From: Caulobacter sp.
Lineage (GTDB): Bacteria > Pseudomonadota > Alphaproteobacteria > Caulobacterales > Caulobacteraceae
Direction of reading: 5' to 3'
DNA length: 64,000 nucleotides
Assembly (NCBI RefSeq): GCF_049283275.1
Contig: NZ_JBAPVS010000142.1
Location: 31,752 to 95,751 of the forward strand
Both the position numbers and the translations under genes were made by a program. The notes under the pieces were generated by a model, which made no database searches, was not told the origin of the DNA, and saw only the letters and a list, made by a program, of their open reading frames with translations. The stretch's first letter is position 1. Every line of letters begins with the position of its first letter. Shown here one piece after another: positions 16,861 through 20,356 of the stretch.

Positions 16861-17742
16861 ATGAGCGCAGACGGTTTTAGCAGCGGCCCTCCGCCCGGCG
16901 CGGCCGCCGATTGGACGATCGATCAGGGCTGGGAAAACTATGCCCAGGCCGAGCATGATGTCTGGATCACCCTTTACGAACGCCAGACCGCCCTGTTGCC
17001 GGGCCGGGCCTGCGACGAGTTCCTGCGCGGGCTCGACGCTCTGGATTTGCATCGCTCGGGCATTCCCGATTTCAAGCGGATCAACGAAGAGCTTCAGCGC
17101 CTGACCGGCTGGAGCGTGGTGGCCGTGCCCGGGTTGGTGCCCGACGACGTGTTCTTCGACCATCTGGCCAACCGCCGCTTCCCGGCGGGCCAGTTCATCC
17201 GCAAGCCGCATGAACTGGACTACCTGCAGGAACCCGACATCTTCCACGATGTATTCGGCCACGTGCCGATGCTGACGGACCCGACCTTCGCAGACTACAT
17301 GCAGGCCTATGGCCAGGGCGGCCAGCGGGCTCTGGGCCTGGGGCGGCTGGCTAACCTGGCCCGCCTCTACTGGTACACGGTCGAGTTCGGCCTGTTGGAG
17401 ACCAAGGCGGGCCCGCGAATCTACGGGGCCGGCATCGTCTCCTCGCGCACGGAGTCGATCTTCGCCCTCGACGATCCCTCCCCCAACCGCATCGGCTTCG
17501 ACCTGGAGCGGGTGATGCGCACGCCCTACCGGATCGACGACTTCCAGCAGGTTTATTTCGTCATCCCCTCGATCCAGACGCTGCAGGAGGTGACCTTGCG
17601 CGACTTCGGAGCGTTATACGACCGCCTGGCCGGCGCCAGCGACCTCGGCATCGCCGAGATCACCAGCGCCGACCGGGTGATCACCGCGGGCAGCCAGGCC
17701 TATGCGAAGGCCGGTGGCCGACTTGCCTCGGCGGGCGGCTGA
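16861..17742 (+). CDS. phhA: phenylalanine 4-monooxygenase
   Basis: EPDIFHDVFGHVPML (Fe His ligands), LARLYWYTVEFGL, YGAGIVSS, YRIDDFQQVYFVI. Confidence 0.97.
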   Translation: MSADGFSSGPPPGAAADWTIDQGWENYAQAEHDVWITLYERQTALLPGRACDEFLRGLDALDLHRSGIPDFKRINEELQRLTGWSVVAVPGLVPDDVFFDHLANRRFPAGQFIRKPHELDYLQEPDIFHDVFGHVPMLTDPTFADYMQAYGQGGQRALGLGRLANLARLYWYTVEFGLLETKAGPRIYGAGIVSSRTESIFALDDPSPNRIGFDLERVMRTPYRIDDFQQVYFVIPSIQTLQEVTLRDFGALYDRLAGASDLGIAEITSADRVITAGSQAYAKAGGRLASAGG

Positions 17743-18911
17743 CCTTTCAGGCCGAACAGCATCCGCACGCCCGGAACGCGCCGGACGATCTCGTAGGTCG
17801 CGAAGCAGCCGGCGAAGGTCAGAACGATCAGGATCGCGGCCTCGAGGGCCTGAGGCAGGCCCAGCTTGGCCAGATGGTGGGCGGCGACCACGATCAGGGT
17901 CTGATGCACCAAATAGAACGGGAAGACACCCAGGGTCAGATAGCGCAACGCCGGCCCGCCGCGATTCAGACGCCTGGCGCCGAAACCCAAGATGGCGGCG
18001 ATCGCGCACCAGGTGTCGGTCGCATAGACGAAGCGCATCGCGAACCGCAGGGCTTCAGGCGGAGCGGCATTCTCGGCCCGGTAAATCCAGGCATAGCTCG
18101 CCCAAGCCACATAGGCCGCCACGGCCAGGCTTAGTGCGGGCCAGCGCGCGGCGATCAAGCGTTCGCGCAGGACCTCGGACTTGGCCAGGCCGAAGCCGAT
18201 GAGGAACGCCGAGAACGACACCGCATGCACGTAGTAGTCGCCGACCAAGGCGTGGGTTTCGCCATAGCGCGGATAGAGCCAGGCGCGGATCAGGCCCAGG
18301 AAAACGATCGGCCACAGGATGAGCCCAGGCCCGCTCAACACGCGCTCGGCGCCGGCCTGGATATAAACGCCTGATCGCTTCCAGAGCAGCAGCAGTCCGG
18401 CCAGCGCCAGGGTGTAGACCAGCAAATAGGCCACGAACCACATGTGGTTCCAGGTCGGCGTGACCAGACACCCATCCGGACCGCACCAGTGGCCCGACGC
18501 CGTCACATAGCGGATCCAGAAGTTGTCGAGGATCGAGGCCGGCGCGCCCGGATGGGCCGTCACGTACTCGACGATCTGGTAGTAGGACTGCGGCGGCACG
18601 ATCACGAACATCGCAAACAGCAGCGGCGGGGCCAGACGGCCGATCCGGGCGCCAGTCAGCTTGGCGACCGGAACCTTGTCGGCCATGAACCGCGTCGCCG
18701 CGCCCGAGACCAGGAACAGCAGGGTCAGGCGCCACGGATTGGTCAGCATCATCAGCGGTTCCAGCGCTTCGACGGGATGCGGCGACTTCACGTGCCAGTC
18801 CCAGGGCACATAGAACATGCCGACGTGGTACAGGATCAGCAGGAAGAACGCGCCGACCCGAATCCAGTCGAGGTCGTATCGGCGGTCAGGGATCGAAGCG
18901 GTCGAAAGCAT
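17700..18911 (-). CDS. acyltransferase-3 family membrane protein (OpgC/MdoC-like)
   Basis: RRYDLDWIRV...LILYH, PWRLTLLFLVSG, HMWFVAYL, FPFYLVHQT; about 10 TM segments. Confidence 0.88.
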   Translation of the reverse strand: MLSTASIPDRRYDLDWIRVGAFFLLILYHVGMFYVPWDWHVKSPHPVEALEPLMMLTNPWRLTLLFLVSGAATRFMADKVPVAKLTGARIGRLAPPLLFAMFVIVPPQSYYQIVEYVTAHPGAPASILDNFWIRYVTASGHWCGPDGCLVTPTWNHMWFVAYLLVYTLALAGLLLLWKRSGVYIQAGAERVLSGPGLILWPIVFLGLIRAWLYPRYGETHALVGDYYVHAVSFSAFLIGFGLAKSEVLRERLIAARWPALSLAVAAYVAWASYAWIYRAENAAPPEALRFAMRFVYATDTWCAIAAILGFGARRLNRGGPALRYLTLGVFPFYLVHQTLIVVAAHHLAKLGLPQALEAAILIVLTFAGCFATYEIVRRVPGVRMLFGLKGQPPAEASRPPAFA

Positions 18912-18981
18912 GACAGGGCGTCCGGCTTGAAAAACGATGCGAACGTCGTGGCCCGCACCGCCGCCCGAGGCCAAGCGCCTG

Positions 18982-19033
18982 GGGACCAGCGGCCGCCGGC
19001 AGGGACGAGCGGAAAAGCGTCCGGGACCAGCGG
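18982..19033. repeat. three phased 11-bp direct repeats GGGAC(C/G)AGCGG
   Basis: Copies at 18982, 19002 and 19023 (20 and 21 bp period) between the divergent acyltransferase and LytTR genes. Confidence 0.8.
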
Positions 19034-19046
19034 CGCGCTTTTCGGG

Positions 19047-19847
19047 ATGAACGGCGAAGAGCGGCAGGGCATCGGACGCGCCTGGCTGCTGGGCGCCTCT
19101 CTGATCTCGTGCATCTCCGTGGTCAACGTCCTGACCATCCGCCACGACGCGCCGCATTTCGGCACGCTGGCCCCTGCCATTTGGGAAGGCAGCAGCGCGC
19201 TGGTGACCGTGGCGATCTTCATGATCCCCGCCGCGGTCGCTCTGTGGACCACGCGGACAGCACCGCGCTGGTGGCGGGCCCTTCCCGTTCACCTTGTGGC
19301 GGTGGTTCTTTACTCGATGCTGCACGTCGCCGGCTTCGTGGCGTTGCGAAAGCTGGCCTACTGGACCTTGATGGACGGCCCCTACGAGTTTGGGCCGCTG
19401 TCCTCGGAGTTCCCCTACGAATTCCGCAAGGACCTGATGGCCTATGGCCTGGCTTCGATCATCTACTACCTGTCCTTAAGGCGCAGCGCGCGTGAGGCCG
19501 TGCTCGCCCAGACGGCGTCGGCGCCCGCCAGCTTCGACATCCGCGACGGCGCGCGCCTGGTGCGCGTTCCTGTCTCCGAGATCCTGGCCGTGCGCTCGGC
19601 CGGCAACTATGCCGAGTTCCTGCTGGCCGACGGCCGGCGGCCCCTGATGCGTTCGTCGCTCAGCGCGCTCGAGACCCAGATGGTCAAGCACGGCTTCCTG
19701 CGCACCCATCGCTCCTGGCTGGTCAATCCGGCACGGGTGACCGGTCTGCGCCCTGAGGGCTCGGGCGACTATGCGGTCGAGTTGGGCGCGGTCGAGGTCC
19801 CGCTGTCGCGGCGCTTTCCCCAGACCCTGTCCGCGTTGCGCGGCTAG
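19047..19847 (+). CDS. membrane-anchored LytTR-family transcriptional regulator
   Basis: Four hydrophobic N-terminal helices, then a LytTR domain (VSEILAVRSAGNYAE...FLRTHRSWLVN). No receiver domain; start could be a little further upstream. Confidence 0.9.
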   Translation: MNGEERQGIGRAWLLGASLISCISVVNVLTIRHDAPHFGTLAPAIWEGSSALVTVAIFMIPAAVALWTTRTAPRWWRALPVHLVAVVLYSMLHVAGFVALRKLAYWTLMDGPYEFGPLSSEFPYEFRKDLMAYGLASIIYYLSLRRSAREAVLAQTASAPASFDIRDGARLVRVPVSEILAVRSAGNYAEFLLADGRRPLMRSSLSALETQMVKHGFLRTHRSWLVNPARVTGLRPEGSGDYAVELGAVEVPLSRRFPQTLSALRG

Positions 19848-20356
19848 TCCAGCAGCAGGCCCATGACAATGTCGTCCTCGACGTGGCCGTCGGGATAGCG
19901 ACCACGACCGATCATGCGCCCCTCGATCTGGAACCCCAGCCTTTGATAGAGCCGCTGGGCGCCGAGGTTGGCCGCGCCAGTCCACAGCTCGATCCGACCG
20001 ATCGGCGGCGTCATCGTCCGGGCGACCTCGATCAGGGCGCGGAACAGGGCCGAGCCGACGCCCCTGCCCTGCCAGTCCGGATCGACCGCCACGGTCAGGT
20101 CGGTCAGCACATGGGCGAAGATCGCCACCTTCATCCGCTCGACATGCAGCTCGCCGCACACCGCGCCGTCGACGTCCACGGCCACCAGGTTCACTCCGCC
20201 GTCCGTCGCGACCGCGATGGCGTGGGCGACATAGTCGGCCGTCACTTCGTCAGGCTGGCGCGCCAGGCCGCCGGGACGGGCGGCGACCTTGCGATGCAAG
20301 GCCAGGATCGCGCTCGCATCGTCGGGCGTCGCGGGGCGAACGCTGAAGTCGGTCAT
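19844..20356 (-). CDS. GNAT-family N-acetyltransferase
   Basis: VRPATPDD, acetyl-CoA motif VDPDWQGRGVGSAL, NLGAQRLYQRLGF; starts 2 nt after the astB stop. Confidence 0.9.
   Translation of the reverse strand: MTDFSVRPATPDDASAILALHRKVAARPGGLARQPDEVTADYVAHAIAVATDGGVNLVAVDVDGAVCGELHVERMKVAIFAHVLTDLTVAVDPDWQGRGVGSALFRALIEVARTMTPPIGRIELWTGAANLGAQRLYQRLGFQIEGRMIGRGRYPDGHVEDDIVMGLLLD

Follow-up and report, generated by a model that had tools for sequence, protein, structure and literature searches.

The window analysed here is a 64,000-nucleotide stretch of a Caulobacter sp. genome (contig NZ_JBAPVS010000142.1, positions 31,752 to 95,751), in which a gene for a membrane-anchored LytTR regulator and a gene for a membrane acyltransferase face away from each other, with an array of four phased direct repeats at the 5' end of the regulator gene. 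Together with an adjacent GCCAAG box, these repeats probably form the operator of the neighbouring LytTR protein. An initial annotation of this DNA had proposed a LytTR-type operator, and the repeats behave as one in the comparative sequence analysis, with a strict 20- or 21-bp spacing, conservation at the DNA level, co-occurrence with the LytTR gene, an AlgR-like core and a position 6 bp from a −35-like box. The two genes and the elements between and around their 5' ends are as follows.

17700..18911, minus strand: acyltransferase gene, encoding a 403-amino acid (aa) Acyl_transf_3 membrane protein (PF01757, E=1.7e-22)
18970..18975, no strand assigned: GCCAAG box, which reads CTTGGC in the direction of the acyltransferase gene and is a candidate −35-like element of that gene's promoter; invariant in 13/13 orthologues
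18982..18992, plus strand: R1, GGGACCAGCGG, out of frame with R2–R4 owing to the 20-bp step
19002..19012, plus strand: R2, GGGACGAGCGG, 20 bp from the start of R1
19023..19033, plus strand: R3, GGGACCAGCGG, 21 bp from the start of R2; R3 and R4 are the two best-conserved units
19044..19054, plus strand: R4, GGGATGAACGG, 21 bp from the start of R3, covering the annotated ATG at 19047
19011–19016 and 19038–19043: GGAAAA and CTTTTC tracts flanking R3, kept throughout the Caulobacter clade; if translated with LytTR, they would supply the rare codons GGA, AAA and CTT
19047..19847, plus strand: LytTR one-component regulator, short form of 266 aa, in which four transmembrane helices precede a LytTR domain

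The repeat array and its uniqueness in the genome

The array consists of four copies of the consensus GGGAYNNNCGG with start-to-start distances of 20, 21 and 21 bp. These four 11-bp units fall within the canonical pattern of LytTR operators, that is, direct repeats of about 9–11 bp with a period of about 20–22 bp. The initial annotation had listed GGGACCAGCGG, GGGACGAGCGG and again GGGACCAGCGG at 20–21 bp, and all three are present as described, 20 and 21 bp apart from start to start; its count of three has to be raised to four, the last copy (GGGATGAACGG) overlapping the annotated ATG. Within the window, the pattern GGGACSAGCGG was found at R1–R3 only (0.45 occurrences expected from shuffled sequences), and the whole 4.3-Mb genome contains 17 matches.

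A position weight matrix built from the orthologues, with the window's own locus excluded, was used to scan for pairs of units at 20–21 bp, with the reversed genome as control. The three adjacent pairs of the locus scored 32–33 bits, against 26.9 bits for the highest-scoring pair elsewhere in the genome and 26.0 bits for the best pair in the reversed-genome control, so that the array is real, non-random and the sole such array in the 4.3-Mb genome. Neither the strict pattern nor the weight matrix set any further regulon members in this genome apart from the reversed-genome control.

Two individual sites from these scans were examined and set aside. The best pair outside the locus, GGGATGAAGGGAAAAGAAACGGGATGAACGGC (contig C64, 3362–3393, minus strand), lies in an intergenic region near the contig end and was not accepted in view of the control maximum; a site at C293:4607 was dropped as a regulon member as it falls within a coding sequence.

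Conservation across orthologous loci

Orthologous loci were taken from 18 genomes of the same genus, with 80 further loci from public genomes, and their 5' regions were aligned; the main counts refer to 82 loci. The motif search upstream of orthologous acyltransferase/LytTR pairs that the initial annotation had suggested recovered the phased units in orthologous loci, at 20 or 21 bp only. Across the 82 loci, the phased units were spaced by 21 bp in 108 cases and by 20 bp in 52, with no other value; the only exceptions were steps of 41–42 bp in which one unit had decayed. Some lineages swap the order of the 20- and 21-bp steps, and the distance from R1 to R3 remains 41 bp. The conserved islands between the two genes comprise the GCCAAG box, the four GGGAY-NNN-CGG(C) units, the A/T tracts around R3 and a block beside the acyltransferase ATG, separated by spacers that vary freely. 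A chance origin of the array was ruled out by the shuffle expectation, the weight-matrix control and the strict spacing across loci.

Read on the acyltransferase strand, the units become CCGYTSGTCCC and resemble the 9-bp AlgR site of Pseudomonas aeruginosa, CCGTTCGTC (PMC4064291). Many orthologues have GACGAACGG as repeat core, whose reverse complement is identical to the AlgR site. When 212 orthologous units were compared with this site as reverse complements, 149 agreed at 7 or more of the 9 positions and 19 were exact, a level of at least 7/9 that is reached by only about 0.2% of random 9-mers; the window's own units agree at 7–8 of 9 positions. AlgR itself differs in being soluble and in having the receiver domain of a response regulator, and its sites are scattered, with no 21-bp-phased arrays.

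Position of the translation start of the regulator

The size of the divergent gap depends on where translation of the regulator begins. The 135-bp gap of the initial annotation (18912–19046) holds if LytTR starts at ATG 19047, but shrinks to 15 bp if the start is a TTG codon further upstream.

18927..18929, plus strand: TTG, candidate true start of LytTR; a protein initiated here would have 306 aa, with the repeats encoded in a tail of 40 residues

TTG 18927 belongs to an in-frame alignment column at −120 relative to the ATG, in which TTG was found in 31, GTG in 11 and ATG in one of the 82 loci. This TTG is preceded by a purine-rich AGGG (18915–18918), with the rare codon AAA coming next. R4 persists in about seven close species in which its ATG is replaced by ATC, ATA, ACG, ACC, AGG or CTG and no other downstream start is present. 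Gene callers disagree on the length of the protein (266–267 aa versus 300–312 aa), and the automatic annotation of Caulobacter sp. 73W gives 290 aa with a GTG start upstream. The open frame in the 82 loci, the conserved start column, the losses of the R4 ATG and the split between callers make it fairly likely that translation of the Caulobacter protein starts at TTG 18927, in which case the repeats would be codons ~19–43 of a tail predicted to be disordered. This amounts to an annotation problem, the start of this gene family being called inconsistently at 266 aa or at about 306 aa.

In two loci, L085 and L086, the units are preceded by a stop, with a GTG within R3 as the sole in-frame start. 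In these two and in L082, L098 and L095 (Caulobacter and Phenylobacterium metagenome-assembled genomes), R3 reads GTGACGAACGG, with the GTG in the LytTR frame. The start codon inside a repeat in L085 and L086 parallels the ATG within R4 of the window.

DNA-level constraint and coding potential

An upstream start raises the alternative that the repeats owe their conservation solely to a peptide, G-T/M-S/N/T-G recurring every seven residues in an N-terminal cytoplasmic tail, with no role as DNA. Such a peptide would fit with the LytTR frame being open through the array in 82/82 loci while the other frames are often stopped, with the −120 column being conserved as TTG, GTG or ATG, and with the loss of the R4 ATG in some seven close species without a break in the frame. 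It was confronted with codon choice in 53 loci that were anchored on the GCCAAG box, with no selection on the motif. Motif positions 1–3 read GGG at R2, R3 and R4 in 46, 49 and 52 of these loci, respectively, and never GGC, which is the preferred glycine codon in these genes (66–74%, versus 12–14% for the rare GGG). At R1, the same motif is one base out of frame and is read as G-D-Q-R, with the rare GAT as aspartate codon in half of the loci, and L020 has it in a frame that yields G-D-E-R instead of G-T-S-G. A 20-bp step is moreover a non-integer number of codons, and the tail that would carry the peptide is predicted to be disordered.

The most decisive point against coding comes from two other families of the order, Caulobacterales, across which the repeats are conserved as DNA. 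In L023, the GCCAAG box is followed by four GGGAY units in 20-bp steps, and L021 has three units, also in 20-bp steps; in both, in-frame TGA stops separate the units from the LytTR ATG 45–50 nt further on, so that, judged from the reading frame, the array is plainly non-coding there. The G+C content at third codon positions (GC3) points in the same direction for the inter-repeat spacers, with values of 0.64, 0.61 and 0.63 versus 0.90 at third positions of the coding sequence; the −117 to −78 stretch (0.72/0.52/0.76) is weakly coding-like and the GC3 test is mixed overall. In the alignments, the denominator shared across lineages is a DNA motif and not a peptide, and coding fails to explain the conservation, which makes an exclusively coding role of the repeats highly improbable. 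The initial annotation had named, as the finding that would speak against an operator, a LytTR start lying upstream with the repeats kept only as GTSG codons; the upstream start probably applies, at TTG 18927, but the remainder fails, as GGG is fixed, other frames are used and in two families the units lie behind in-frame stops.

Promoter geometry and RNA-level alternatives

The GCCAAG box was present in 53/82 loci and lay 6 nt from R1 in 44/44 cases in which the first unit was found. Its distance to the divergent ATG was 55–59 nt in 38 loci (about 58 nt in the window), and was also 56 nt in L023 and in L078, a locus with a different divergent gene (see below). In the LytTR frame, the box would give the rare glutamine codon CAA. 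On the acyltransferase strand, CTTGGC is placed where a −35 element would sit if the 5' untranslated region were about 28 nt long.

The units might also act in mRNA and not in DNA, forming part of the leader or of the early coding sequence and either folding or being bound by a protein. In all lineages they do occupy the 5' end of the LytTR transcript, with a likely start codon within R4 or R3. An Rfam search of 18700–19300 gave no match, however, and the sole inverted repeat, GAAAAGCG/CGCTTTTC, showed no compensatory change beyond GAAAA/TTTTC. Since the outer stem positions lack compensatory change, the GGAAAA and CTTTTC tracts are more likely to be a DNA feature than an RNA hairpin, going by the alignments. 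The strict two-turn phasing and the fixed distance to the divergent ATG are properties of DNA sites, and the AlgR-like core also points to DNA, so that action of the units at the RNA level appears improbable.

Genomic context of the array

The divergent acyltransferase–LytTR pair is conserved in at least four families (f1, f2, f4 and f5), with about 30% identity for LytTR and about 42% for the acyltransferase, and the array accompanies the acyltransferase in at least four families. In 13 loci of Phenylobacterium-type, Rhizomicrobium-type and related genomes, a LytTR orthologue (about 50% identity) instead faces a pyrroloquinoline quinone (PQQ)-dependent dehydrogenase (PF01011), as in L078 (436–2406), L097 (435–2360) and 11 further loci. 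The acyltransferase named as divergent partner in the initial annotation is thus the partner here and in at least four families, but is replaced by a PQQ dehydrogenase in Phenylobacterium- and Rhizomicrobium-type genomes; no acyltransferase was found in the six genomes searched among those with the dehydrogenase partner. The PQQ loci keep R3 and R4, and often R1; Phenylobacterium-type loci also keep the GCCAAG box, which is missing in L097. Conversely, the array was absent upstream of an acyltransferase homologue without LytTR neighbour in two Caulobacter genomes (G005 and G006), and in three loci without a divergent partner the units were degenerate. Being present with the PQQ partner, absent at acyltransferases without LytTR and degenerate where no partner is found, the element appears to belong to the LytTR gene and seems to need a divergent partner.

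These data also bear on the possibility that the array is a real cis-regulatory element that is bound by another LytTR paralogue or by an unrelated factor. The genome has two more LytTR genes, one on contig C25 and the HigX orthologue on contig C228. Against another binder stand the array accompanying this particular LytTR gene into the PQQ dehydrogenase context and being absent where the gene is absent, the different 20-bp-phased direct repeat that the HigX orthologue has of its own, and the lack in the genome of the second strong array that a global factor would predict. A different binding protein is therefore considered unlikely, and the adjacent LytTR protein is retained as the probable ligand of the array.

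Predicted proteins of the divergent pair

The initial gene calls were confirmed by the PF01757 match of the acyltransferase and by a PF04397 match of the LytTR protein (residues 170–263 of the 266-aa form, E=7e-16, 58.7 bits versus a cut-off of 22.6). Its description of the regulator as having four transmembrane helices and no receiver domain agreed with the structural model and with a domain profile search, in which no match to Response_reg was found. MHYT (PF03707) likewise gave no match in this protein at E<=0.01. Database names such as "response regulator" for this protein are misnomers. In the AlphaFold2 model of the long form (mean predicted local distance difference test score, pLDDT, of 86), helices span residues 43–74, 81–111, 115–149 and 158–198 and are followed by a beta fold at 202–293; residues 1–38 have a pLDDT <50 and are predicted to be disordered. 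The loops between the helices are only 3–8 residues long and helix 4 continues directly into the LytTR fold, leaving little tether, so that the DNA would have to approach the membrane closely. According to the model, the protein is of the 4TM-LytTR layout (four transmembrane helices and a LytTR domain) of HigX, without a periplasmic domain. Foldseek matched the LytTR part to 3d6w (template modelling score 0.82), AgrA (3bs1/4g4k, about 0.78–0.80) and ComE, and the fold search of solved structures returned nothing meaningful for the transmembrane bundle.

The label "OpgC-like" for the acyltransferase was partly upheld. The MdoC model NF003014 aligned with the 403-aa protein over its full length, but at 88 bits the score is below the cut-off of 338; by sequence, the protein is a distant full-length relative of OpgC/MdoC whose membership is in Acyl_transf_3 only, outside the OpgC/MdoC equivalog. 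Its ATG (CAT at 18909–18911) was unchanged in 13/13 orthologues. In two Caulobacter strains (L037 and L091), short tandem duplications resembling CGAAGGCATGAC occur at the acyltransferase start, about 60–110 nt upstream of the TTG column, and multiply the candidate ATG.

Comparison with characterized LytTR systems

To our knowledge, membrane-anchored LytTR regulators are widespread in Alphaproteobacteria and only CoxC and HigX have been studied, with no clear operator or signal known to us for HigX. The publication of these two proteins (PMC11347149 and PMC13384398) has overtaken the view of the initial annotation that the architecture was uncharacterized. CoxC of Afipia carboxidovorans, described in 2024, is a membrane MHYT-LytTR repressor of cox genes that binds three direct repeats (PMC11347149). 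It shares with the present protein an alphaproteobacterial origin, a membrane one-component LytTR organization and an operator of direct repeats at ~20–21 bp, three of them for CoxC, but differs in being a copper/carbon monoxide sensor of the MHYT type with seven transmembrane helices, in its repeat sequence (TTNNNGCN), in an operator that overlaps the −35 element and in acting as a repressor.

HigX (CCNA_03131) of Caulobacter crescentus, reported in 2026, is a transmembrane 4TM-LytTR transcription factor tied to envelope genes, and according to the same study all Caulobacter LytTR proteins share a HigX-like architecture (PMC13384398). The likeness extends to the genus, the four N-terminal transmembrane helices, the lack of a periplasmic domain, the short linker, the C-terminal LytTR domain, the envelope link and a conserved divergent neighbour. 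HigX is nevertheless a paralogue and not an orthologue, with 29% identity over the LytTR domain alone, and its neighbour is a COG4188 hydrolase and not an acyltransferase. The HigX orthologue of the present genome is located on C228 beside ctrA, and on its 5' side (C228:15519–15555, corresponding to L113:951–987) a 17-bp direct repeat, TTCGCGAAnnGGCGAAC, occurs twice with a 20-bp spacing. This repeat was found once per genome in 12/16 genomes of the genus, with zero occurrences of a control pattern, and is a candidate HigX operator that is unlike the published inverted-repeat motif from chromatin immunoprecipitation (ChIP) (PMC13384398).

The HdrR and BrsR operators consist of direct repeats with 11–13 bp spacers located 4–11 bp upstream of the −35 element (PMC6193735). 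HdrRM and BrsRM, as well as AgrA and ComE, resemble the present system in having direct repeats near the −35 (here a candidate −35-like box), a membrane-controlled regulator and a regulator gene that adjoins its own operator (PMC6193735). HdrRM and BrsRM differ in that a soluble regulator is paired with a separate membrane inhibitor; here the membrane part and the DNA-binding part belong to one protein, a convergent GNAT acetyltransferase gene lies downstream, and there are four units, which overlap the 5' coding end of the regulator.

Proposed mode of action

Spaced two helical turns apart, the four sites would lie on one face of the DNA, where membrane-tethered LytTR domains could approach them from a single side, probably in the form of two dimers. 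LytTR domains bound to the four sites would control, and probably activate, the divergent envelope gene, since the array ends 6 bp upstream of CTTGGC, the usual geometry of LytTR activators. As the array also extends over the beginning of the regulator's own reading frame, feedback of the regulator on its own expression is probable. That this LytTR protein binds the array, in which sense it regulates, where the promoters lie and what is sensed are what we infer from this arrangement, as is the view that the protein senses an envelope signal directly and activates in preference to repressing.

Several observations weigh against this interpretation. A scan of the locus for sigma-70 consensus promoters and terminators found nothing, so the −35 assignment of CTTGGC is drawn from its position and conservation. 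The LytTR frame is without stops from −66 to 0 in all 82 loci, the two other frames being stopped in 26 and 22; the array is probably inside the regulator's reading frame in Caulobacter, and part of its conservation could thus be coding. The LytTR domain is no closer to AlgR-type proteins than to other members of the family, and HigX, the sole characterized 4TM-LytTR paralogue, gave an inverted-repeat ChIP motif and not direct repeats (PMC13384398). Since the divergent partner varies by lineage, the designation "acyltransferase regulator" is not universal on the loci compared.

A more far-reaching possibility, put forward tentatively, is that of a dual-coded operator in which, in Caulobacter, the four sites lie within a translated disordered tail and the two start codons are only 15 bp apart. 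The membrane-tethered regulator might then act in cis on the DNA during its co-translational insertion, so that the condition of the bilayer or envelope would govern an OpgC-like acyltransferase here and a periplasmic PQQ dehydrogenase in other lineages. The family might then constitute a portable "sensor plus operator" cassette able to capture different envelope genes.

The locus offers a precise candidate operator, with four units in fixed phase and a flanking −35-like box, and just one local target. It also allows a natural comparison between lineages in which the cassette is opposite an acyltransferase and those in which it is opposite a PQQ dehydrogenase. It may be a convenient system in which to study how a membrane-fixed transcription factor reaches DNA and what it senses.

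Neighbouring genes

Both genes of the divergent pair overlap a convergent neighbour at their 3' ends. A phenylalanine-4-hydroxylase-like gene (16861–17742, plus strand, Biopterin_H) converges with the acyltransferase gene, and the two 3' ends share 43 nt (17700–17742). On the other side, the LytTR gene meets a convergent GNAT acetyltransferase gene (19844–20353, minus strand), with which it shares the sequence CTAG at 19844–19847; these four bases provide both stop codons on opposite strands.

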